A stretch of 40,118 nucleotides of DNA from a phage: the sequence record PZ379598.1. The stretch is one strand, 5' to 3'. Shown here in pieces: positions 858 through 37,541 of this stretch. How positions within the stretch are numbered: position 1 is the first letter of the stretch; each line of letters opens with the position of its first letter. The translations under genes and the position numbers were made by a program. The notes below the pieces were generated by a model, which ran no database searches, was not told the DNA's origin, and saw only the letters and a list, made by a program, of their open reading frames with translations.

Positions 858-2624
858 CTAGTGGAACGTAACGTATGCCCCTAGTCCAAGCTCGTCGTCC
901 GTATCGTGAGTTACCCGGACCCCATTGTCCCAGAACTCAGTGTGGATGGACTCGAAGCCTTTCCGTGGGTTCTCCATCTGTTCCTCCAGCCACTCCTCAG
1001 TGACTTCACGTTCTCCTTTGTTGGCATCCTTAGCCATAGACTCAACGAAGAACTGTACACCGATAGCCAGCGCATCAAGTCGGTCATCGTGTGCCAAGGC
1101 TCCACGTTCACGAGAGATACGTGTCATCTGGTAGAAGAGAGAGTAGATAGGGTTACGAACACCATCCTTATCAGAGGCCGACTGGTAGTCTTGGACGATA
1201 GCAGCAGCGTTAACGATAAGTCGGTGAGACCCCATGATAGGCTCCAGAACGTCACAGATGCGGAGTTCTTTCTGACCCTTACTCTTCACTTCAGTTACAG
1301 CCGCAGGATGGATACGGGCCGCTACAGGCTTGAATAGCTCAAGGTACATACCATCACCGAAGTTACCCTCAATGACGTATTCGTTGACCTTCCACTTACG
1401 ACCAATCTTAGCCAAGGCTTCCAGCGTAGAGTCTTCATAACCACCACGCATACCACCAACTTCCATAGCGAAGATGTAGCCGTTGAGCTGGTACAGTACC
1501 GCATAACCAGTTTCATCCTTACCACGACCACTAGGGTCAATGACCAGAATCTTCTGGGTGTACGAGCTAAAGGCAGAGCCTACAGTCTGATACGTGTGGT
1601 ACGAGTCACCCATGAGTCCAACGTTAGGAACGTCCTCACGCTTGTTCTGAGGGTTCGGCAACCATTGGTAGACCATTGGGCTGGACGCTGGGTCCAAGTC
1701 GGCTACGATAAGGTCACGGAGCTTCAGAGGGTACTTCTCGGCATCACTCAGGTTCGGGTTAAGCATGAACTGTAGAGCGAAGCCAGCTTTACCGTAGGAC
1801 AGCTCACGTTCCTTCAGGTCCGTATCATCGAAGCGTACTTCATCAGTCGGACGCCAGTAGAAGGACTCAGGGTCCTCTTCCAGCTCTGCCTGAAGCATAG
1901 GAGCCAGACGGTCGCCGTAAGACTGCCAGTCCTTCCTGTCGCGTGGATAACGAGCGGGCCAGATAGTAGTGGTGTACCCACGACCTTCCAGCTCACGGTA
2001 CAGGGTCATCTCGTTCTGAGGAGTACCCAGATAGATGATCGTACCTCCCGGCTTCAGGATAGCGTCGAACTCTTTCACAAGCTCTGATAGACGGTCTCGT
2101 GCAGCCTGAGTCGCTGAGTTGTTCGGAACCTCCACGTCATCGGCAATCAGGATGTCAGCACGACTACCAGTCAACTGACCAGTGATACCAACGGACTTAA
2201 CCGAAGGTGAGTGGTCTGGCTTGGCAGGTCCCACGTCGAAGCTGATAACCGCATCTCGCTGCCCCTGTTTAGGTTTGAGTTCCTGAAGCTGAGGCATGAG
2301 GTCGATGATTCGCTTGATGAAGATGGAGTTCGCATCGGCTCGTTCCTTTGAGGCCGACACAATCATGAACTTCAAGTCTGGGTTATTCCATAGCTTCCAG
2401 ACCACAAAGCCACAGGTCAAAAACGACTTGCCAATACCACGGAACGCCTGAAGGATGAAGCGGCGATTATCCCCAGCAGCCAGCTTCTTACACATATCTA
2501 TCTGGCAGCGGGTTGGAACCGGAAGACTTAGTGCTTTCCAGAGAACGAAGATGAAGAACACGAAGTCGTCCCTCATCCTTTGGACCATTTCTGCCTGTCT
2601 TTCAGCGGGTGTTTTCTTAGACAT
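858..2624 (-). CDS. gp19: Terminase large subunit (T7 gp19-like)
   Basis: 588 aa; near-colinear identity with recalled T7 gp19 ([58 protein letters not shown]). Confidence 0.95.
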
Positions 2625-3054
2625 ATAGTCCCTCCAGCATTAGGTCCCGGACAGCGATAGACTCCTCTAAAGTGGGACGTGTTGTTCGCATATAGGCATT
2701 CCCGCGTTTAACCTGAATCCTATAACCATTCTGGTGACGGGTAACGCACTTCACTCCTGTCTTAGAGTCATAATGGCTACCAGTATTCCAAGTGTTTTCA
2801 GCGGCAGTAACGAGCCGTAAGTTACTTAAGGTATTATTGCTAGGGTTCCTGTAGATGTGGTCTATTTGCATACCATGCGGTATAGGACCATTGGTTAGTT
2901 CCCATATCACACGATGGGCCCGCTTACTGCCTAGACTTCGTGTCTGTACTATCCAATATCCCATCCGACTTAATGTTCCCACAGGCTTTCCAGTCCTAAC
3001 GGAGACCAGACCGGATGGACTAGCCGGGTCCACTTTGTAGTAATCACTTAACAC
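2617..3054 (-). CDS. HNH homing endonuclease
   Basis: 145 aa with an HNH core ([41 protein letters not shown]); overlaps the spanin 3' end and the terminase start. Confidence 0.8.
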
Positions 3055-9900: not shown

Positions 9901-10855
9901 TCAGAGGGTCCACACCAGCGCCAATCACACCAGCGGCTAACTGAGCACCAGTCCCAGCCTTGGCCTTCTCTTGGTCCAACTTCTGGTTCTCAAGCGCCAA
10001 GTTAATAAGCTCGGTCAGGTTCTGAGGAGAGCCTCCAGTAATGACTCCGTAATACTGAGGCAAAACACCAGCGTTACGAATCTGGTCTAGCTCCTCACGA
10101 GACCACTTATGGTTGTTCCATCTGGTTGGGTTGAACACATCGCCAATGACATCCAGTGAGTCCTCAGTCTGACCAGCTCGTATAGCCACGCCGACCATAG
10201 AGTTCTTCACTTCAGCTTCTGTAGCCGCACCGAAACCGAACCACGTAGAGCGGTCCTCTTGCTCCTGCATGGTCTCTCCAGTAGCCTTATAGAACATCTC
10301 ACCGAACGATTCGTTGGGAGCTTCAGGTGCTTGACCATCAATGTTCAGACCAGCAGCGGTCGGAAGGTTCTCACCCAGAGCTACTTTAGGTTTAGCCTTG
10401 AGTCCTTCCGTGAGTGCGTCAAATACGTTAGCGCTTACTGGTGGAGTCTTTGGGCTAATGCCATTGAGTGCTCTTGCGACTCCCTTCTGATAGACTTCTG
10501 GGTCGTACCGGGAGCCTGTCTCATGGTAGCCGATAGCCTCAGACAGAGAGGCGAGGACATCATGGTTCGTCAGGTCGATACTTTGTGTTGCTGGAATACC
10601 AGTCGCAGCCACAACAGAGTTGATGTAGGACTGAGTGTCGTTCTCGCTCGGAGGTGCCCATCTGTTGATAATCTTCTCGATAGAGTCATAACCTTGGCGA
10701 CCGTAGCTTTGAAGGGTTTTCGCTAATGCTCTGACCCCAGATTCAGGACTGTCGAAGATAACGAATGCACCATCATCGCCTATAGCACCTTCCCACTGGT
10801 CTTTGGACTTACGGATATTGCCCGGATTTGCGTTCCTTACACCACGTGTTGCCAT
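6968..10855 (-). CDS. gp16: Internal virion (core/ejection) protein D (T7 gp16-like) with a divergent N-terminal domain
   Basis: 1295 aa; long colinear similarity to recalled T7 gp16 from about residue 185 onward (STWFGF, TRWN.H.W..EEL, VTGGSP.NL, VRSPTGMQSGASGK, MENPAIFG, NGDIAIMG.TGKTTK, RAMDLWR). The first ~180 aa do not resemble the T7 transglycosylase domain. Confidence 0.9.
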   Translation of the reverse strand: MATRGVRNANPGNIRKSKDQWEGAIGDDGAFVIFDSPESGVRALAKTLQSYGRQGYDSIEKIINRWAPPSENDTQSYINSVVAATGIPATQSIDLTNHDVLASLSEAIGYHETGSRYDPEVYQKGVARALNGISPKTPPVSANVFDALTEGLKAKPKVALGENLPTAAGLNIDGQAPEAPNESFGEMFYKATGETMQEQEDRSTWFGFGAATEAEVKNSMVGVAIRAGQTEDSLDVIGDVFNPTRWNNHKWSREELDQIRNAGVLPQYYGVITGGSPQNLTELINLALENQKLDQEKAKAGTGAQLAAGVIGAGVDPLTYVPIAGQVGKGGKLVNKMFTVAAQSGALAGVSEMARTSVAGGDAHVAEAILGGALFGGGMTAIADGLGRALGRNTNEFAGPATRLEARETARNVDGQDLSRLPIQEGEQTFSHQGVKFADVPNEPGSVRLEDGSILIGENPLNPKTRQVFDEVIEPERAAAGVNLGGLTEIGLKLLRSENPEIRGVAADLVRSPTGMQSGASGKIGTTASDVFERLRSVDHRFYNDIDDAVTEALKDPYFQTAFWRDSGAFRQDIYQRVSMAIEDGSGNLKAELTPGEMKVYDLLKNQFDAKREMMENPAMFGRPDAQSIFPGSHFKGTYVPHVYSKQMKELYIKELGSPEALQEAIKKSWLTSYASRPEVKKRVDEALLEADPTLTPEGLAAAVDKYANDKAYGISHTEQFERSSVMEENINGLVGLENNSFLEARNLFDSDMSIVLPNGQTFSVNNLREWDMDKIVPAYNRRINGDIAIMAGTGKTTKDMKDLVETMMNKAGDDGKLKGEVSTLRDTLKILTGRARRDGADDAAFATVMRTMTDLSFFAKNAYMGVQNLTEIGGMLARGNVRAMLHGVPIFRDLAFRNKKVGASEIKDLHNVIFGKELDDSIRPSKQDVIDRLRSYSDLSRGTATALGTAKYYTGELAVRSPFTKVLNGTTNYLLDAGRQGFLSDIVEHSLTGSKRKFDDRWLKTAGISDEQWSGIKSLIRESVTRGPDGKYTIKDKKAFSQDPRAMDLWRMGDTIADETLLRPHKLSNMDAKAYGPLAKTVLQFKNFVIKSINGRTMRTFYNATKNNRAIDAALSTVMSMGLAGIYYMAQAHVKAYAMQDGRDRDYLKQALDPTMIGYAALSRSSHLGGPLGVANILGGIAGYEDTKMLRSSILPRSPTEKPERAIAYGAATSDPVMNVVGNFLEQVPAFGYAANVGASAYNLAGYLKADTRVNERDYMTGMYNTLRELVPNDPITQKLLLGTFEEQGIHIKD

Positions 10856-11286
10856 GTCTTTCTCCTCAATATATTTCGTATGGAAACGACGCTTACCCCG
10901 TATAAGGTGGAAAGCTCAGATACTTTTAATGGACTGGAGCGTATTTCCCTAACAGATTCCTCTGTCAGTATAGCTCTGCCTGCTCCACTACCTCTTGCCT
11001 GTCGGCCTCTGGATACCTTATCTGCAATGTTGTCAGCCTGCGTTCCTACTTCAAGGTGTTCAGGATTTATGCATGATGGATTATCACATTTATGCCTAAC
11101 AACATAGCCATCTGGTATTGGCCCCTTATTTATGGAGTAGGAGAGACGATGTGCCATATACTTAACCCTAGCCACCATTATCCTTCCGTATCCTTCTCCG
11201 TCTAAGTGGCCTGTGAATCGGATACAGCCAGACTCTTCAGCTACTGACAGTTCTGCCAGTCTCTCACTGGCTGTCCCGTTCTTCAT
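10837..11286 (-). CDS. HNH homing endonuclease with C-terminal helix-turn-helix-like tail
   Basis: 149 aa; HNH core (GYGRIMV...HRLSYSINKGPIPDGYVVRHKCDNPSCINPEHLEVGTQADN); wedged between the gp15 and gp16 genes. Confidence 0.8.
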   Translation of the reverse strand: MKNGTASERLAELSVAEESGCIRFTGHLDGEGYGRIMVARVKYMAHRLSYSINKGPIPDGYVVRHKCDNPSCINPEHLEVGTQADNIADKVSRGRQARGSGAGRAILTEESVREIRSSPLKVSELSTLYGVSVVSIRNILRRKTWQHVV

Positions 11287-23416: not shown

Positions 23417-24264
23417 AGGATGACCTCCTTGGACTTAGGGTCGTAGTCGGAGGCTCGGCAAATACGAGCTACCTGAGCTTGGACCAGAAGTTCCTCCTCG
23501 GTCATCCCAGCTTTAGCAGCCAGAGTCACCATGCAGTCCCACAGCGTCATGTCTTCACGCTTAGGATACTTCTTCCACTCAGTCTTAATCTGGCCTTTGT
23601 TCTTTCCAGTCTTAAGCTCACGGCTCTCCTGCACGAAGTAGTACGGCTCGTCAAGGAACGCACGAGTGGTGTCCTCACCCATCCCCAGAATCCCGCCGTA
23701 GCCATCTGTAGTGTCACCCTTGATGGTCTGCTCCATGTGCCAGTAGTCTGCCTCAGCAGTCGTATGACTCAGAATTTCACCAGTGGTTAACCAGAAGAAC
23801 TCACAGTTCGGGATGGTCTTGAAGTCCTTGTCACAGGACACCAGAACCGCATGGTCACATCCGACAATCTGAGGTCTGGTCCCGATGATACCCATACAGT
23901 CATCACCCTCAAGCGTTGGACGCAGGAAGCTGTTGAACCGTGGGTCAGCCATCACTTCGGCTACGAACTTCTTGTAACCTACAGGCTTGCGAGAACCCTT
24001 ACGGTTAGCCTTATAGGTAGGTAGGACGTCCTTACGCCAGTTGTAATCGTCAGTGAAGCACATCACAATCTTAGCGTCTTTCCACGCCTTGCGCTTCTTA
24101 ACGATTTCAGCGATGGTGTTCTCAAGGATACGACGAGCCTTTGCATGGTCGCAGATAAGGGTCCAGATGTCATCGCCCCAGTCAGTCTCGTCCTCGGCAG
24201 CAGCCATAGATGAAAACACTAAGTAGTCACCATCTAACACAAGAGCTATTTTCTTTTCGCTCAC
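23398..24264 (-). CDS. gp6: 5'-3' exonuclease (T7 gp6-like)
   Basis: Strong identity with recalled T7 gp6 (CDHAKAR.ILE, KAW, NWRK...YKANRK, KPVGY, LEGDD.MG.I, SCDKDFKTIPNC, TIKGD.TDGY.GI, LWDC, AKAGMTEE). Likely start is GTG at about 24264 (GGAGG 6 nt upstream, GTGA overlap with the gp5.7 stop); the track ORF extends to 24318. Confidence 0.9.
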   Translation of the reverse strand: MSEKKIALVLDGDYLVFSSMAAAEDETDWGDDIWTLICDHAKARRILENTIAEIVKKRKAWKDAKIVMCFTDDYNWRKDVLPTYKANRKGSRKPVGYKKFVAEVMADPRFNSFLRPTLEGDDCMGIIGTRPQIVGCDHAVLVSCDKDFKTIPNCEFFWLTTGEILSHTTAEADYWHMEQTIKGDTTDGYGGILGMGEDTTRAFLDEPYYFVQESRELKTGKNKGQIKTEWKKYPKREDMTLWDCMVTLAAKAGMTEEELLVQAQVARICRASDYDPKSKEVILWTPSM

Positions 24265-24470
24265 AGGCATCCTCCATGTTGGTTCAGGAACTTGGTGCCA
24301 GCAGCGGTAATCTCCCACGCACCGTTGTTACGCCCGTCCATAGACAGACAGCTCAGATGTCCACGACTCGCAGCCTCAGCCACCAGTGCCGCATTGTTGC
24401 GCACGTAGTTGGACTGGAAGGTCTTCGGGCAGGACTTAAGGGCCGCTAGGACCCGTAAGTATTCACTCAT
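24261..24470 (-). CDS. gp5.7: T7 gp5.7-like protein
   Basis: 69 aa; near-identical to recalled T7 gp5.7 (MS.YL.VL.A.KSCPKTFQSNYVRNNA.LVAEAASRGH.SCL...GRN.GAWEITA.GT.FL...GGC). Confidence 0.9.
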   Translation of the reverse strand: MSEYLRVLAALKSCPKTFQSNYVRNNAALVAEAASRGHLSCLSMDGRNNGAWEITAAGTKFLNQHGGCL

Positions 24471-24760
24471 TGCTTGACCTCGAATCGCAGGTTAGATACT
24501 CCGAACTGGTCATAACCAAAGTCGTCTACCAGCTCCTCCTTGATGGTCTTCTTGAGGGCAATTTCAAGGGCAGACTCAGGGCCTGACTCGATTGCGGTTT
24601 TGACCAGAGCCAACTGAAGACCATCCAGCTTCTCACCCTCAGCGTAGGCTTTAGTCATCTCAGCCAGTTGGCGACACATGGTATCTTCTTCCTTTGAGTT
24701 AACAACCATCTTCAGATCAAAACTCACACGAATACGTTTAGTAATAGCCATTAGTGACAC
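24467..24760 (-). CDS. gp5.5: T7 gp5.5-like protein (in T7, binds host H-NS)
   Basis: 97 aa; position and the N-terminal MA.TK...VSFD pattern match my recollection of gp5.5, with moderate certainty. Confidence 0.6.
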   Translation of the reverse strand: MSLMAITKRIRVSFDLKMVVNSKEEDTMCRQLAEMTKAYAEGEKLDGLQLALVKTAIESGPESALEIALKKTIKEELVDDFGYDQFGVSNLRFEVKQ

Positions 24761-25176
24761 TCCTTCTTAACAAGTTTGCGCTCACGGTTCGTCTTAATGA
24801 CGTGTTCGCGTTTTGTAATACACTGTAGATGCTCTATGTTGCAGCACCCACGGTTCAAGCACAAATGGTCTATTTCGTAGCCATTTGGTATAGGTCCGCG
24901 CTTCTGCTCCCACACCCATCGGTGGAACATGAAGGCGAACTTGTTGCCCTTCCTGTAGCTTCCCATGGAGTACCGGAAGTACCCATCTTGGTTCCTCTTG
25001 TGGGACACGCAGACGATACATCCGGTAGGCATGGTGTGGAAGCGTATGGTCTGGGTTCGAGGGTCAATGACACTCTTTCCACGTTGGTCCAATCTTACCC
25101 TCCGTATCAAGTTCACACTTGAAGTTATAGAAGCGTCCGACCTCGCGCATCGCCTCTTGAGCAATACGGACGACAT
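24751..25176 (-). CDS. HNH homing endonuclease overlapping the DNA polymerase 3' end
   Basis: 141 aa with an HNH core (CIVCVSHKRNQDGYFRY...FHRWVWEQKRGPIPNGYEIDHLCLNRGCCNIEHL); AGGAGA upstream of the ATG at 25176. The first ~113 nt overlap the polymerase C-terminal codons in another frame. Confidence 0.75.
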   Translation of the reverse strand: MSSVLLKRRCARSDASITSSVNLIRRVRLDQRGKSVIDPRTQTIRFHTMPTGCIVCVSHKRNQDGYFRYSMGSYRKGNKFAFMFHRWVWEQKRGPIPNGYEIDHLCLNRGCCNIEHLQCITKREHVIKTNRERKLVKKECH

Positions 25177-27235
25177 CTTCTGCTATCTCCTGAGTACGGC
25201 ACGCTATCTGCAATTCATCGTGAATCCAAGCCATTAGCGCAAAGTCGCCGTCCCATCCGTTACCGTAACCAGCCTCTTCAAGTTTCTTCTCAGTCAGTAC
25301 CATCCAGTGCTTACAGACAACCGCACCGTCCCCCTGAAGTAGGGCGTTAAGTGCTGAGTGTGGAGACCGGATGTGAATACGACGACCATCCAGACCTTTC
25401 AGCCAGCGACGTTTCCACTTGACGATATTCTCACCGTCCACCCACTTAGAGTCTGAGATTAACGTATTACTCACAGCTTCCCTGAGGTCCTTGATGGCTG
25501 GTGTACCCTCAATGAATTTCTTCATCAGAGCTGAACCTTCCTTCTTACCACCGCCTACTATCAGTCCAATCTTAGCGGCCCCTGCACCATACAGGAACGC
25601 GTAGATGAACGTCTTAGCGTTGTTACGGAAAGCCTCATGGTCGTGGTTAGACTTATCGCGTTGGACGTTAGGTGCTAACCCAGCGTTTACTGCGTTGGCC
25701 CAGTGGATGTCACCTTCTACCACAGTCTTCGCATATGCACCACCGTCAAACGGAGCCGCTCTGTTCCCAAGACAACGAAGCTCAAGACCTGAGGCATCCA
25801 CACCAACTTGAATCCAAGGGTCTGGCTTACCGTCCTTCTTGTTCCACGCTGCACCGAAAGCACCACGGCAAGTCTCACCATATGGAGCACCGTTAGCCGG
25901 GACCTGAGCCATGTTTGGTGAACTATGGGTCGCACGTCCGGTTACTGCCCCGCATGGGTTTATTGAGCCGTGCATACGTCCGTCTGGACCTACAAGTTTC
26001 AACCATGCGTTCTTACCTTCAGCAGCCTGACCGATGCGCTTCTGGACTACCAGGTACTCACGGACCAGCTCTACGCAAGCCTGAGCCTCTGCGTCTGGTA
26101 ACTTAACGTGTTCCAACGTCTCGTCATCGACTACAGGTTTCCCGGTGTCAGTGAAGTCCACAGGCTCCCAGCCACGCTCCATCAGAACTTTCGCTAAGTG
26201 GTCTCCGCTTCCCGGATTAAACTCAACGTAAGTGATAGGTGTGAACGGCGCTCCCTCCATCGTGTCTCGTGAGTCGAACTCGCAAGGCTCCAGACCTAAG
26301 CGTTGAGCTTTGTTCTTCGGCTTCTTGAATACTGACCCGACCTTCGGATACACGACTCGCGGATACTTCGGAAGGTCCTTGCCTGTCCGTGGGTGCTTGA
26401 AGAACTCCTTGCCTCCCTTTGGTGCGTACCAGCTGCCGAAAGTCGAACGCAGCTTGTCCAGCAGCTCTGCACGTTTGACGGTGAGTTCACGATATAAACC
26501 TTCGACCATCTCGGTGTTCATCGGATAGCCGTTACGCTCCATCTTCGCACAGGTCCACGCAGCATCATGTTCCAGACGCAACGCATAAATCTGGTCGAAA
26601 GCGAACTGTTCAGACTGGAAGTAATACTTGTCAGTCAGGAACTTCTTGAACAGCGCCAGCGTGACCACAACGTCTTGAACGTTATAGTCCAGCATCTCCT
26701 GAGACGGGAACATCCATTCGTCCCCAGCCTTATATTCGATACCTTCGGCCTTGCACTTGGCAACGTAATCGTGTTTGTACTCACCCTTCATCTCACCAAG
26801 ACGATAGCCCCAAGCCTCAAGAGACTGGCGTCCCATCATCTTAGGAGGCAGACGACCAGCTTTCACCGCGCCCATGTCTGAGAACTTAATGTTTGGATAC
26901 ATCAAGCGGCCTAGCACCAAGGTATCAATCATCTTGTGTTTCGGGAAGTTAAAACGTTTCCCAAAGTACAGACGCTTCAGCTTGTCTATAGCAGGGACGT
27001 CATAGTTGATACCGTTGTGAAATACCAGCATACCATCAGGCGATGCGGCAATCTCTTCAACTTTATGAACATACTCTTTGAAGCCACCGACGATACCGAC
27101 CATCGGAGCTACCCCATACTTAAGGGTCTCATTCGACTCGGCGTTAATCAGGACCCCACAGTGAAACTGGGAGACTGTATCAAGGAGACCGTTGGTCTCG
27201 ATGTCAGAACCCCAGATACTCTTAAGGTCAAACAT
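25064..27235 (-). CDS. gp5: DNA polymerase (T7 gp5-like, family A)
   Basis: Identity with recalled T7 gp5 (DIE.N.LL..V..FHCGV, FHNG..YDVPA, LEAWGYRLGEMKGEYK, DYNVQDVVVT, C-terminal LDTEGK.GP.W..CH). Start taken at internal ATG 27235 (GGAGGA 6 nt upstream); the track start at 27271 lies inside the upstream hairpin. Confidence 0.95.
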   Translation of the reverse strand: MFDLKSIWGSDIETNGLLDTVSQFHCGVLINAESNETLKYGVAPMVGIVGGFKEYVHKVEEIAASPDGMLVFHNGINYDVPAIDKLKRLYFGKRFNFPKHKMIDTLVLGRLMYPNIKFSDMGAVKAGRLPPKMMGRQSLEAWGYRLGEMKGEYKHDYVAKCKAEGIEYKAGDEWMFPSQEMLDYNVQDVVVTLALFKKFLTDKYYFQSEQFAFDQIYALRLEHDAAWTCAKMERNGYPMNTEMVEGLYRELTVKRAELLDKLRSTFGSWYAPKGGKEFFKHPRTGKDLPKYPRVVYPKVGSVFKKPKNKAQRLGLEPCEFDSRDTMEGAPFTPITYVEFNPGSGDHLAKVLMERGWEPVDFTDTGKPVVDDETLEHVKLPDAEAQACVELVREYLVVQKRIGQAAEGKNAWLKLVGPDGRMHGSINPCGAVTGRATHSSPNMAQVPANGAPYGETCRGAFGAAWNKKDGKPDPWIQVGVDASGLELRCLGNRAAPFDGGAYAKTVVEGDIHWANAVNAGLAPNVQRDKSNHDHEAFRNNAKTFIYAFLYGAGAAKIGLIVGGGKKEGSALMKKFIEGTPAIKDLREAVSNTLISDSKWVDGENIVKWKRRWLKGLDGRRIHIRSPHSALNALLQGDGAVVCKHWMVLTEKKLEEAGYGNGWDGDFALMAWIHDELQIACRTQEIAEDVVRIAQEAMREVGRFYNFKCELDTEGKIGPTWKECH

Positions 27236-29218: not shown

Positions 29219-29268
29219 TCACTCCTTAATCACAAATGCGAACAGAGGGACAGGACTCACGGTCCCAT

Positions 29269-29288
29269 CCCTAAGGTGATAGTTTAGG
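29269..29288 (-). promoter_or_regulatory. Variant phage promoter upstream of the primase-helicase gene
   Basis: Plus-strand CCCTAAGGTGATAGTTTAGG (two mismatches to the consensus in the TATAG box), preceded by a GGGAC...GTCCC hairpin at about 29248-29267. Confidence 0.55.
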
Positions 29289-29499
29289 CTTTGAAGAACT
29301 GAGACAACTGGTCGGCTTTGGTGTCAGCCTGACGCGCCTTCATGCCAGCTTCCAGTGACGCGATGGTCAGCTTGTCAGCCAGAGCAGCAGCATCAGCCGC
29401 ACCATCGGCAGTCTTCTCTGCTACCTTTCGTTCCATAACCTCAGCACGACGATAACCACGCACCACCAGACGACCAAGAAATTCGATAAGTTTAATCAT
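29284..29499 (-). CDS. Hypothetical helical protein (71 aa)
   Basis: ORF between lysozyme and primase; Ala/Lys/Glu-rich with predicted amphipathic helices and C-terminal QLSQFFKA. Confidence 0.55.
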   Translation of the reverse strand: MIKLIEFLGRLVVRGYRRAEVMERKVAEKTADGAADAAALADKLTIASLEAGMKARQADTKADQLSQFFKA

Positions 29500-34859: not shown

Positions 34860-37541
34860 TTAAGCGAATGCAAAGTCTGAAGACAAGATGTCTTCGATAT
34901 TCAGTTTACCTTTCTTCGGAAGCTCAGGCAACTTGTCTCTCTGGCTCTCGTGAAGCTGGTATTCAAACTGCTCGTAGAAGTCAAGCAGCACATCGTTGTC
35001 GCGGTATGTCTCGACCATCGTCTCACGGACTCCACGGAACAGATACTCAGCGTCAGCCGGGATGGTCCCGAAGCTATCGTGAATCACTGCGAATGACATC
35101 ACGCCATATTTGCGGTGCGTGTGGACTACAGTCTTGCGGAGGTGGCTACCATCTTGTGAGTGGACGAAGTTCGGGCTAATGCCTGACTCCTGCTTGTGCT
35201 TGTCCAGCTCTTTCTTCGTGCCTTTGTTGACGGTAGGCTGAAGGTTGAATGACCCTAAGAACATCAGGTTCAGACGAGTGGTGTCCTTCTTGCGGTATTC
35301 CTGCCAGACAGGGAAACCATCAGGTGTGACCCAGTGTACCGGAAGACAAGGCTTCAGGATTTCTCCAGTCTTCTTGTCCTTCACTTCAGCAGCAAGCAGC
35401 TTGGCAGCACCCTGAAGCCATTTCATCGCGTCAACCGCAGCAACTACGGTCACACTCACAGCTTCCCAAATCATCTTAGCCATGAAGCGAGATGCTTGGC
35501 TTGGTTCAGTGAACATAGCGCCAGACCCTGAGTCAATCGCTGGCATCACGATGTCCTCGTAAACTTGGTCTGCGAAGCCGTACTCTTTCGACCCGTAGGC
35601 CAGAGTCATGACCGAACGCTTAGTGACCTTTCGTGACATACCGTAGGTCAGCCACTGACGGGCAAGCTCTCGTGTCCCCAGCTTGAGACGCTCGGTAATC
35701 TCACCAGTTTTCTTGTCCTCGTGAGTTACCATCTCGTTGTCCGTACCGTTAACCAGTAGGACTTTAAGCTCCTCCTCAATGCGGTCAGACACGATGCGGT
35801 AGATGTCTTGGACCTTACCGGATGGCGTCAGGTTTACTGCATGTCCACCGATGTGGTCGCGAAGCATAGCGCTGAAGTGCTGAATCCCAGAGCAGGACCC
35901 ATCGAACGCTATCGGCAGCGAGCAGGAGTAAGACAAGCCGTGGTGCATTACGCCAGCATACTCGAAGCAGAACGCTAGGAAGCAGAACGGAGAGTCTAAC
36001 TTGCCCCACCACTCAATGCTATCCATCGGTGCCTTGGCAGCAGCCATGATGTTGTCGTGGTTATCTTCCACCCACTTGATACGCTCCTCGAAGGTGACTT
36101 TATCGACACCCGCGCAGTTTGCACCGTGGACCTTCAGCCATTTGAAACCATCAGCACCAATAGGCTTACCGACTGCCAGAGTCAGAAGACCCTTTTGCAT
36201 GTCGTTACCCTGAGGGTTGAACATCGGCACAGCGTAGACGCGACCGCGCCAGTCCATGTTATACGGGAACCAGATGGCCTTGAACTGAGAGAACTTGTTC
36301 GCTTGGTTGACGATAAAGCTCAGTGACAATCTTCGTGACTGTCTGGCCTTCTCGCGGCGATAGATACCAGCAGCAGCCTTCTTCCATGCCTTGAGTTCTT
36401 CTTCAGTCTCACCCGCATAGTCCTCAGGCTTCAGCGGTTCCATCTGAGGGATGTCATCAATAGGCGTGTTGTTCAGCTTCTCGACCATGTTCACCACTTC
36501 CAGAACCTTCTTGTTCACTTTCCAAGGTGTATTCTGAATGATGTTCACAGCGTCATAGACTTCAGGCATATACACGTCTTCGTAGCGTGCTACCGCAGAC
36601 TTAGACCCTAAGCGAATCAGTGGTAATGGTCTGCGTCCTTTGGCCCAGTACCCACCGCCTACGACACCAGTCCACGGCTTAGGTGGAACGACGCAAGGCT
36701 GGTAGACTGGAGCTATACCCGCAAGGCTGAATCCTCGTTGTGCCATCTTCTTGACCCAGAAGTCTGACAGGTGGACCATCTCAACGTCAGCCGCTGCATT
36801 GCCAGCACCGTAACGCTTAAGCTCGACCAGTTGTGTGGACTGGATGACAATCTCCAGCATCTTGATTCCAACGTGGACAGCCTCGGTCGGACTCCAAGTC
36901 CCCCACGCATCTTCCAGTTGGCCTTGCTCCAGCATGGATGCCTCGACCGCTTGCATGTAGGCTTTCTTGTAGGACGCCCCGGCCCGCTTATTCAGGTTAT
37001 CAGCTATCGCCTTCTTGAAGTGCTCTTTCTCCTTGTCACGGATGCGACCGAAGCGGATTTCGTCCTCAAGTGTGCGACCTATCGCTGAGGCCATCGGTGT
37101 AATCGGTATCCCTTCAGGCTTGACCAGCTTGGAGAGTATGACCTTCAGTATGATAACCGCAGCAGACTCGCAGGAGATGCGCAAAGAGCGGACCTTTACG
37201 GCCTTCTCTTCAGTGCTCAACATGGTGAACGCTACGCTCGGACGAGAGGTTGACAGCTTCCCGTCTGGACCTTCATGCCACTCCTTGACGGCTTGCGCAA
37301 TCTTAGGGACCAGAGTCTGCATCAAAGGCTTGGCGACCTGATTGTCTGCCAGTTCCCCTCGCTCAGTCTGTCTCTCAAGGTTCTTGATGAAACGTCGCTC
37401 GCCTTCAGTGTATGCCTCGTGCTCAAGCTGAAGCTGTTTGACTGCAAGGTCTTGCCCGTAGTGGTCAGCCAGTAGGTTAAACGGCTCAATGGCGTTCGAC
37501 ACATCAGAGAAGTCGTGCTTGTCAATAGAGATGACGCTCAT
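34860..37541 (-). CDS. gp1: Single-subunit DNA-directed RNA polymerase (T7 gp1-like)
   Basis: 893 aa; colinear with recalled T7 RNAP from the N-terminus (DFSD...PFN.LADHYG, LEHE.Y..GE.RF) through the C-terminal FAFA. Confidence 0.97.
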   Translation of the reverse strand: MSVISIDKHDFSDVSNAIEPFNLLADHYGQDLAVKQLQLEHEAYTEGERRFIKNLERQTERGELADNQVAKPLMQTLVPKIAQAVKEWHEGPDGKLSTSRPSVAFTMLSTEEKAVKVRSLRISCESAAVIILKVILSKLVKPEGIPITPMASAIGRTLEDEIRFGRIRDKEKEHFKKAIADNLNKRAGASYKKAYMQAVEASMLEQGQLEDAWGTWSPTEAVHVGIKMLEIVIQSTQLVELKRYGAGNAAADVEMVHLSDFWVKKMAQRGFSLAGIAPVYQPCVVPPKPWTGVVGGGYWAKGRRPLPLIRLGSKSAVARYEDVYMPEVYDAVNIIQNTPWKVNKKVLEVVNMVEKLNNTPIDDIPQMEPLKPEDYAGETEEELKAWKKAAAGIYRREKARQSRRLSLSFIVNQANKFSQFKAIWFPYNMDWRGRVYAVPMFNPQGNDMQKGLLTLAVGKPIGADGFKWLKVHGANCAGVDKVTFEERIKWVEDNHDNIMAAAKAPMDSIEWWGKLDSPFCFLAFCFEYAGVMHHGLSYSCSLPIAFDGSCSGIQHFSAMLRDHIGGHAVNLTPSGKVQDIYRIVSDRIEEELKVLLVNGTDNEMVTHEDKKTGEITERLKLGTRELARQWLTYGMSRKVTKRSVMTLAYGSKEYGFADQVYEDIVMPAIDSGSGAMFTEPSQASRFMAKMIWEAVSVTVVAAVDAMKWLQGAAKLLAAEVKDKKTGEILKPCLPVHWVTPDGFPVWQEYRKKDTTRLNLMFLGSFNLQPTVNKGTKKELDKHKQESGISPNFVHSQDGSHLRKTVVHTHRKYGVMSFAVIHDSFGTIPADAEYLFRGVRETMVETYRDNDVLLDFYEQFEYQLHESQRDKLPELPKKGKLNIEDILSSDFAFA

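Follow-up and report, generated by a model that had tools for sequence, protein, structure and literature searches.

A T3 gene 5.3-type HNH homing endonuclease gene at the polymerase/5.5 junction of a Kayfunavirus, with a probable start codon inside the DNA polymerase gene

We analyzed a small open reading frame (ORF) that overlaps the 3' end of the DNA polymerase gene in a phage DNA of 40,118 nucleotides (nt; sequence record PZ379598.1). This whole stretch is referred to here as the window; all coordinates are those of the window, and all of its genes lie on the minus strand. Sequence comparison identifies the ORF as a free-standing HNH (His-Me finger) homing endonuclease gene, an ortholog of gene 5.3 of phage T3, situated between the polymerase gene and gene 5.5. 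Its translation probably begins at a TTG codon within the polymerase gene, which would give a protein of 113 amino acids (aa). The original prediction had described a 141-aa HNH ORF with its own ribosome-binding site (RBS), beginning about 113 nt ahead of the polymerase stop in a different frame, so that two proteins share coding DNA. That observation is right in all factual detail, and the interpretation placed on it is partly supported. The ORF is present in the mechanical ORF list, AGGAG is found at 25187..25191 (9-10 nt before the ATG), and the polymerase and 141-aa frames both cover 25064..25176 (113 nt), with the HNH frame at +1 relative to the polymerase. The sharing of coding DNA is thus real, but its extent was overstated: with a start at TTG 25092 the overlap is 29 nt (25064..25092), which is the most likely length, as ATG 25176 is not conserved among relatives and TTG 25092 is. 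Overall, this is a known kind of element with a modestly interesting twist in its start site, and current understanding is not overturned by the findings.

Identity of the phage and of the nuclease

The 1.4-kb query region around the ORF is 99.8% identical to Escherichia phage vB_EcoP-U8 and matches 245 phage records, whose names are mostly those of enterobacterial phages or Kayfunavirus. All fetched records belong to Kayfunavirus or a related Studiervirinae genus, and the window is a Kayfunavirus (T7-like). Its genes in this region run in the order polymerase, HNH, gene 5.5, gene 5.7 and exonuclease (Table 1), as they do in T3 and T7M.

The small ORF is not a chance ORF, since residues 83-126 of the 141-aa frame match Pfam HNH_3 (PF13392) with E = 9.5e-20 (70.4 bits; cut-off 24.8). 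Endonuclease/HNH families of PHROG also match the protein, down to 1e-28. It is 81.6% identical to T3 gp5.3 (NP_523323, 101 aa) over 98 of 101 residues (E = 7e-64) and 46% identical to the HNH endonuclease of the K1F polymerase group I intron. The protein has the motifs DH, C-x-N-R-x-CCN and EH...H...N, which vary little or not at all across 16 homologues; the cysteines and the catalytic and zinc-ligand positions (DH, CCN, EH) are complete in the window copy. In addition, a zf-His_Me_endon match spans the N-terminal strands, including the conserved GC-x2-C / DGYFRY.

A sequence search of the PDB with the HNH protein gave no meaningful match, so a fold search was needed. An AlphaFold2 (AF2) model built from 16 sequences is confident for residues 41-135 (predicted local distance difference test, pLDDT, 70-92), and its best Foldseek match in the PDB is I-HmuI (1U3E; probability 1.0, E = 3e-3, template modelling (TM) score 0.41, 20% identity), followed by I-PpoI. 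The TM score is modest because the 40 N-terminal residues are disordered. According to the model, the protein has the beta-beta-alpha-metal fold. A search of 5.8 billion proteins returned 17 relatives, none of them of the window type at ≥90% identity and one of them a PD-(D/E)XK chimera (P0016) that is discussed below.

Orthology, the location between genes 5 and 5.5 and a presence/absence polymorphism with precise empty sites all link the gene to T3 gene 5.3. Judged by its sequence, the window allele is a variant of that family in which a single feature, an autonomous Shine-Dalgarno (SD)-ATG start, is missing.

Anatomy of the insertion

The empty-site records span 1088 nt (79% query coverage) where the window has 1401 nt and are therefore shorter by exactly 313 nt; 14 empty-site loci were read base by base. 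The boundaries of the insertion slide within a 15-nt imperfect direct repeat. In the empty-site genome MZ234022 the polymerase gene ends ...TGG AAG GAG TGT CAC TAA-TG GCT, its stop overlapping the start of gene 5.5, and the AAGGAG of this polymerase end is the RBS of gene 5.5. The window junction reads ...TGG AAA GAG TGT CAT TGA (insert) AAG GAG TGT CAC TAA-TG GCT. The last five polymerase codons thus occur twice in the window, and the upstream copy, which has drifted at synonymous sites, terminates the polymerase. The right copy, still read in its original frame, holds the last four HNH codons and the stop (ECH-stop with the preceding K, the HNH protein ending ...KKECH), the GGAG RBS of gene 5.5, whose SD energy is -8.6 kcal/mol, and the TAATG overlap. 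Because these codons serve two functions in Kayfunavirus, any insert between the polymerase gene and gene 5.5 must duplicate them. The insertion is accordingly accompanied by a 15-nt duplication, with the upstream copy closing the polymerase and the downstream copy closing the HNH gene and keeping gene 5.5 coupled.

The original prediction offered a recent homing-endonuclease insertion as one explanation. A homing-type HNH gene does stand at the polymerase 3' end, but the word recent does not hold, as this is the classical T3 5.3 position and third-position diversity among alleles is about 0.15-0.3. In UFJF_EcSW4, a further 158-nt insertion with a small ORF, at locus 1000-1158, lies between the HNH gene and gene 5.5, and the polymerase/5.5 junction has therefore taken in further DNA.

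Start of HNH translation

In T3-type phages and in a second Kayfunavirus group (pO91, IME177, Milel, ZG49 and others), GGAG(G)-N4-5-ATG follows just after the polymerase TAA and the HNH proteins begin MGGVATLRFHKMPTGC. The window-type allele is without the GGAGG-N4-ATG-GGA-GGC module, 24 nt being replaced by 13 unrelated nt, and no ATG, GTG or TTG occurs in it between the polymerase stop and Met49 (ATG 25032). Of the 11 codons from the polymerase stop to Met49, 7 vary only synonymously and 3 show replacements, with a diversity of 0.28 at third versus 0.05 at second positions among 13 intact alleles; these codons align with TLRFHK of T3. Purifying selection and the TLRFHK match upstream of Met49, in a segment with no start codon, point to initiation inside the polymerase gene.

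Within the polymerase gene, TTG 25092 is preceded by a GGAGG that results from the codon choices ACG (Thr) and GAG (Glu). Its SD duplex with the 16S rRNA 3' end has an energy of -10.0 kcal/mol at a spacing of 5-6 nt, within the range of the bona fide genes of this phage. Both the TTG and its SD are invariant in all 16 window-type alleles (U8, SH3, Pipis, T147P5, UFJF_EcSW4, EcL30g, MopsHU1, EP1, EPr2, SD6, R1, KM02, TH20, SP7, an IMG/VR contig and the window itself). GGAGG is found in all alleles without a start of their own and in none of the 14 empty-site genomes (ACC or ACT GAA) or five own-start genomes (ACC GAG or ACA GAA). Moreover, no synonymous variation is seen in nine consecutive polymerase codons (25085..25111), a stretch that takes in the SD and its spacer as well as the TTG and the two HNH codons after it. 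Over the final 660 nt of the polymerase gene, 55% of third positions vary among the 16 alleles, and no other invariant third-position run is as long (P ~7e-4 for this location specifically). The annotators of MopsHU1, SFPH2 and 6925 independently called the start with a 29-nt overlap.

We infer from these data that TTG 25092 is the probable start of the HNH gene (113 aa, 29-nt overlap). The window allele would have no start signal of its own; initiation at TTG 25092 would be served by the GGAGG of the polymerase Thr-Glu-Gly codons, and the first ten residues, (M)DQRGKSVID, would be read from the last 29 nt of the polymerase gene in the +1 frame.

Other candidate codons were tried and rejected: ATT 25068, a non-canonical start at the polymerase stop, is ACT in R1 and SD6, and GTG 25116 and TTG 25110 are conserved but have no SD (-0.2 and -0.3 kcal/mol), the residue between them being N, S, I or T. 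As for RNA structure that might sequester the start region, the fold is no better than that of shuffled sequence (z = +0.84). In the own-start alleles the HNH ORF is in the polymerase frame with only TAA between (…RECH-stop-GDKMGGVATL…); read-through of that stop would give a polymerase-HNH fusion, which is probably incidental.

Target site and proposed homing

Motif C of the polymerase differs with the state of the locus. It contains TGG GTN (Trp-Val) in 14 of 14 empty-site genomes, in T7 and in exon 1 of intron-bearing contigs; TGG ATH (Trp-Ile) in the 16 window-type alleles and in T3, T7M, LL2 and two IMG/VR contigs; and TTT GTC (Phe-Val) in five own-start Kayfunavirus alleles. Val with an empty site or intron, versus Ile or Phe-Val with a free-standing HNH gene, is a perfect association in the genomes compared, the two sites being 155 bp apart and linked. 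The second-longest synonymous-invariant run (25223..25243) abuts the motif C site. This difference by cassette status fits a linked immunity substitution, and the Val/Ile polymorphism is a candidate immunity determinant.

Bonocora and Shub (Curr Biol 2009) reportedly found that T3 gene 5.3 encodes an active homing endonuclease of the free-standing type and invades empty sites, and the T3 enzyme is said to cut the T7 polymerase gene at the intron-insertion position, the same as that of the intron-encoded I-TslI. By homology, we infer a similar mode of spread here. The enzyme would cut HNH-less polymerase alleles near the Trp-Val-His/Asp-Glu codons of motif C, about 155 bp upstream, and repair from an HNH-carrying co-infecting genome would copy the gene together with the polymerase 3' end. 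The copied segment would include the Val-to-Ile change (TGG GTN to TGG ATT), which presumably protects the carrier.

Selection, decay and recent exchange

The HNH gene is under purifying selection, with 51 codons that vary only synonymously versus 22 with replacements. Three of the 16 alleles have decayed (a TGA nonsense codon after ...YSM in KM02, an internal deletion in TH20 and a frameshift in SP7), as expected in the gain-decay-loss cycle of homing genes. Polymerase-tail haplotypes are linked to the cassette. The window and U8 are nearly identical over a 1.85-kb block (24197..26047) centred on the HNH locus and 2-14% divergent over most of the genome. This block holds four differences, three of which (24816, 24902 and 25047) are replacements in the HNH gene, which suggests that the locus was exchanged recently and that the nuclease protein changes fast.

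A second nuclease cassette at the same junction

Over its first 38 residues, P0016 hardly differs from the part of the window ORF that overlaps the polymerase gene. The rest of this protein is a PD-(D/E)XK nuclease (Pfam PDDEXK_5, the T7 gene 5.3 family), unrelated to HNH. The PDDEXK_5 cassette was found at the polymerase/5.5 junction in at least 37 phage records, its carriers including Shigella phage SFPH2 (locus 585-983; YP_009807480), ST16, 6925 and metagenome contigs. SFPH2, ST16 and 6925 part from the window sequence precisely behind the polymerase stop (CAT TGA C/GGAAAG... vs CAT TGA C/CCTCGA...), and the PD-(D/E)XK cassette shares the polymerase-embedded GGAGG-TTG and the 10-residue leader of the window HNH gene. 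ST16 and 6925 have a different polymerase-tail haplotype, with no more than 44 nt of open +1 frame ahead of the polymerase stop. In these two phages the Pfam domain begins at residue 14-15 of the protein initiated at TTG(-29), and this TTG, which has ACG GAG GGT upstream, is the sole start codon that precedes the domain. This provides independent support for TTG 25092. Between SFPH2 and ST16, the N-terminal codons show 10 synonymous versus 2 replacement differences (counted by eye). A pattern scan of metagenome sequences returned at least 120 stretches, mostly chance matches; the six true polymerase tails listed all have GGAGG-TTG.

It seems about an even chance that the last ~40 nt of the Kayfunavirus polymerase gene form a common module at which selfish nuclease genes, exchangeable for one another, dock and find their start. 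In such a module, polymerase-silent Thr ACG and Glu GAG before Gly GGT would make the GGAGG; this GGAGG, together with a TTG within Ile-Gly (ATT GGA), would start a +1-frame leader, (M)DQRGK-x-x-ID; and at least two unrelated cassettes, the T3 5.3-type HNH and the T7 5.3-type PD-(D/E)XK, would have been joined to the leader exactly at the polymerase stop. If this is true, the translation signal of the parasite sits in an essential segment of a host gene, so that the phage cannot delete it; translation of the polymerase through the start module would throttle nuclease expression; and the module would double as the left homology arm for cassette exchange.

Alternative explanations

Two other sets of start codons were weighed against TTG 25092. 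Initiation at ATG 25176 from its own AGGAG would yield the 141-aa protein and make the 113 nt truly dual-coding. An AGGAG precedes this ATG by 9-10 nt (-7.4 kcal/mol), 11 of the 16 alleles have a frame that stays open from it, and P0016, the representative of the PD-(D/E)XK cluster, was called from the equivalent ATG. However, R1 and KM02 do not have the ATG, in the IMG/VR contig a TAG comes directly after it, and in EcL30g and SD6 codon 13 is an in-frame TAG; of these five alleles, four keep an intact HNH body. The SD of this ATG carries mutations in EP1 (AGGCG), SD6 (AGAAG) and the IMG/VR contig. In 25093..25176, 15 of 28 polymerase third positions vary; these are second positions of the HNH frame, where changes are always replacements, and single residues vary as R/L/Q, A/V, D/G or N/S/I/T. 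The proportion (54%) is not reduced relative to upstream polymerase-only DNA (57-67%). Residues 1-40 have a pLDDT below 50 in the AF2 model, and all homologues begin about 38 residues later, none having the extension segment. A 141-aa protein is on balance unlikely, and that the frame stays open for another 84 nt, as far as ATG 25176, is probably an accident of the polymerase sequence. A gene that does not overlap the polymerase at all, starting at ATG 25032 (Met49, 93 aa) or ATG 24966 (71 aa), appears in several GenBank annotations (EPr2 from Met49, SH3 and Pipis from Met71); both codons are conserved, and a 93-aa database homologue (P0006) exists. Yet neither has a usable SD (+0.5 kcal/mol at ATG 25032; -3.7 kcal/mol at a 13-nt spacing at ATG 24966), the codons upstream of Met49 are under purifying selection and match the T3 N-terminus, and the 71-aa form loses the GC-x2-C / DGYFRY strands, which AF2 folds confidently and which lie within the zf-His_Me_endon match. 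We consider such a start very unlikely.

The remaining alternatives concern the locus as a whole. The original prediction had allowed for a sequencing frameshift, and had asked whether the HNH motif lies in an intein-like or fused context. A polymerase-HNH fusion split by an indel, either intein-like or expressed by programmed +1 frameshifting at CAT TGA C, or a K1F-like intron-encoded HNH, would agree with the +1 frame of the HNH gene. The polymerase ends at UGA-C, a poor context for termination with a superficial likeness to the prfB frameshift site, CUU UGA C, and K1F, the Kayfunavirus type species, has an intron-borne HNH in its polymerase gene. But the junction, CAY TGA CCN..., is common to 16 independently sequenced genomes or contigs and further metagenome contigs. 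The polymerase is full length, and its C-terminus, ...GPTWKECH, is colinear with ...NWAICH of T7 and ...NWKECH of T3, which confirms its stop as the check proposed with the original prediction had envisaged; a sequencing frameshift is excluded. CAU/CAC is no slippery P-site codon and allows no +1 re-pairing, and there is no SD 3 nt upstream (AAAGAGUGU), so that only the UGA-C context fits frameshifting. No intein motifs were seen, and the HNH sequence lies in the +1 frame behind the canonical ...CH with TGA between. The polymerase is uninterrupted at the K1F intron site (CAT/GAT of Trp-Val-His/Asp-Glu, window 25220/25219), and the window protein is without the C-terminal extension of ~146-aa homologues that resemble the K1F intron HNH. 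Rfam returned no group I intron, only a chance PAGEV match, over the whole window at the gathering threshold and over 24400..25600 at E <= 1. Rfam (release 15, gathering threshold) also missed the group I intron that is annotated in the K1F polymerase gene (locus 2400-3050); its negative is therefore no evidence against ORF-bearing group I introns in these phages, and colinearity was used instead. On the comparative data, the indel and intron readings are refuted, and we give artefact or fusion next to no credence. It is also conceivable that the window copy is a remnant that has lost its function and is decaying, with a reading frame that simply has not yet closed. Among the 16 sister alleles three are plainly pseudogenes, three of the four differences in the block common with U8 fall in the 313-nt insert and are all replacements (P ~0.02), and the gene has lost its own SD-ATG. 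The window ORF is nevertheless intact with its catalytic and zinc-ligand positions complete, the family-wide pattern is strongly purifying and the start module is conserved, which makes a remnant distinctly unlikely.

Several points weigh against a functional homing gene started at TTG 25092. Start codons of the TTG type are weak, and this one is embedded in a gene that is itself actively translated. The probability of an invariant run of such length anywhere is P = 0.068, which is marginal if the location is given no prior, and the run could be partly due to co-conversion or hitch-hiking beside a mobile gene. In this phage, the frame from ATG 25176 is open and its AGGAG could serve, so a 141-aa product may also be made. 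Translation and nuclease activity of the window allele are predicted, the proposed cleavage site is drawn from the reported biochemistry of the T3 enzyme, and the association between target site and HNH gene is confounded by linkage over 155 bp, which alone could yield it. Finally, the window copy has two lineage-specific replacements, Ile16 for Leu and Thr93 for Pro (113-aa numbering), which might weaken the enzyme; Thr at position 93 also occurs in one homologue.

Other features and significance

Three HNH genes had been noted in the window, and the two others (Table 1) also match HNH_3. The one at 2617..3054 has a GTG start with an SD of -12.2 kcal/mol and overlaps both neighbour ORFs by 8-11 nt. 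Three such genes had been called a high load, which they are not: the number is ordinary for T7-like phages, as Sxt1 has four extra HNH genes and relatives carry HNH at several sites. The mechanical ORF list opens the polymerase gene at GTG 27271 (735 aa). ATG 27235 has GGAGG upstream (-9.5 kcal/mol) and relatives annotate a 2172-nt coding sequence (CDS); the polymerase start is most likely this ATG (723 aa) rather than the GTG. In the U8 annotation, a tRNA-Thr (U8 36843-36921) stands between the gene for primase/helicase and the one that follows, where the window (~29225-29300) is only ~86% identical; ARAGORN found no tRNA in the whole window.

Table 1. Coordinates of the features discussed, in window positions
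Feature	Position	Strand	Details
Best-supported HNH homing endonuclease CDS (T3 gene 5.3 ortholog)	24751..25092	-	probable start TTG 25092..25090; 113 aa; TAA 24753..24751
Open frame of the HNH ORF	24751..25176	-	ATG start; 141 aa; TAA stop 24753..24751; mechanical ORF list
Upstream extension to ATG 25176	25093..25176	-	28 extra codons; probably fortuitous; may be a minor start in this phage
SD GGAGG for TTG 25092	25099..25103	-	6-nt spacer GTAAGA; from polymerase codons ACG GAG GGT (Thr-Glu-Gly)
Nine polymerase codons without synonymous variation	25085..25111	-	CTT GAT ACG GAG GGT AAG ATT GGA CCA; 16 alleles
Insertion versus empty-site Kayfunaviruses	24751..25063	-	313 nt; equivalent 24766..25078, as boundaries slide in the repeat; base-level alignment
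Left copy of the 15-nt imperfect direct repeat	25064..25078	-	AAA GAG TGT CAT TGA (KECH-stop); alignment with empty-site MZ234022
Right copy of the repeat	24751..24765	-	AAG GAG TGT CAC TAA; identical to the empty-site polymerase end
Putative target/immunity site in polymerase motif C	25217..25228	-	TGG ATT CAC/GAT (Trp-Ile-His/Asp); K1F intron point = 25220/25219
DNA polymerase (T7 gene 5 homologue)	25064..27235	-	723 aa; ends ...GPTWKECH; TGA 25066..25064; Pfam DNA_pol_A 6.2e-38
Gene 5.5 homologue	24467..24751	-	H-NS inhibitor family by relatives' annotation; ATG overlaps the HNH stop (TAATG)
Second HNH_3 gene	10837..11286	-	149 aa; 1.2e-13; between the gp15 and gp16 internal virion genes; 19-nt overlap with the gp16 start
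Third HNH_3 gene	2617..3054	-	145 aa; 9.6e-19; just upstream of the large terminase gene

Among public Kayfunavirus genomes the HNH gene is annotated inconsistently: the annotations of U8, KM02, R1 and EP1 omit it, those of SH3 and Pipis give it 71 aa, that of EPr2 93 aa and that of MopsHU1 113 aa. The present analysis gives its most defensible coordinates, and the junction is no assembly error. Moreover, the locus offers a natural series at one site, comprising the empty state, an intron-borne HNH gene, an HNH gene with its own start, one with a polymerase-embedded start, and a PD-(D/E)XK gene on that embedded start. The series is relevant to the way in which homing endonuclease genes establish themselves beside essential host genes and come to depend on them, a question that is reportedly raised by the pathway of Bonocora and Shub for the origin of mobile introns.

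Comparison with known systems

The closest system is T3 gene 5.3 with its orthologs in T7M, phiYeO3-12, SH2 and LL2, those of phiYeO3-12 and SH2 being annotated as homing endonuclease. Like the window gene, they are HNH_3 genes between genes 5 and 5.5, and T3-type carriers share with the window the Ile in Trp-x-His of motif C. T3-type genes have their own GGAGG-N4-ATG 10 nt after the polymerase TAA and begin MGGVATLRFHK, whereas the window is without this module. Its polymerase stop is TGA, its HNH frame is open into the polymerase gene with the start most likely at the TTG inside, and its HNH C-terminus runs through the duplicated polymerase end (…KKECH).

In K1F (YP_338109) and PhiI/W31 (I-TslI), an HNH protein with a core homologous to that of the window is encoded in a group I intron of polymerase motif C. 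K1F and the window share the host gene, the putative target region and the genus. Unlike K1F, the window has no intron, its polymerase being uninterrupted at CAC/GAT, and its protein is without the ~45-residue C-terminal extension of the ~146-aa homologues that resemble the K1F intron HNH. The 5.3 site of K1F is empty, and its polymerase stop overlaps the start of gene 5.5. I-HmuI (1U3E), a nicking HNH enzyme of the polymerase intron of Bacillus phage SPO1, is likewise of the His-Me finger type and has a phage DNA polymerase gene as its target; unlike the window HNH, it is intron-borne and has extra DNA-binding modules.

T7 gene 5.3 and the Kayfunavirus PD-(D/E)XK cassette have an unrelated fold, PD-(D/E)XK and not HNH, although in Kayfunaviruses the cassette occupies the same junction as the window HNH gene. 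T7 gene 5.3 itself has its own start 15 nt after the polymerase stop, and T7 gp5.3 is dispensable. The PD-(D/E)XK carriers ST16 and 6925 keep Val in motif C, unlike the window.

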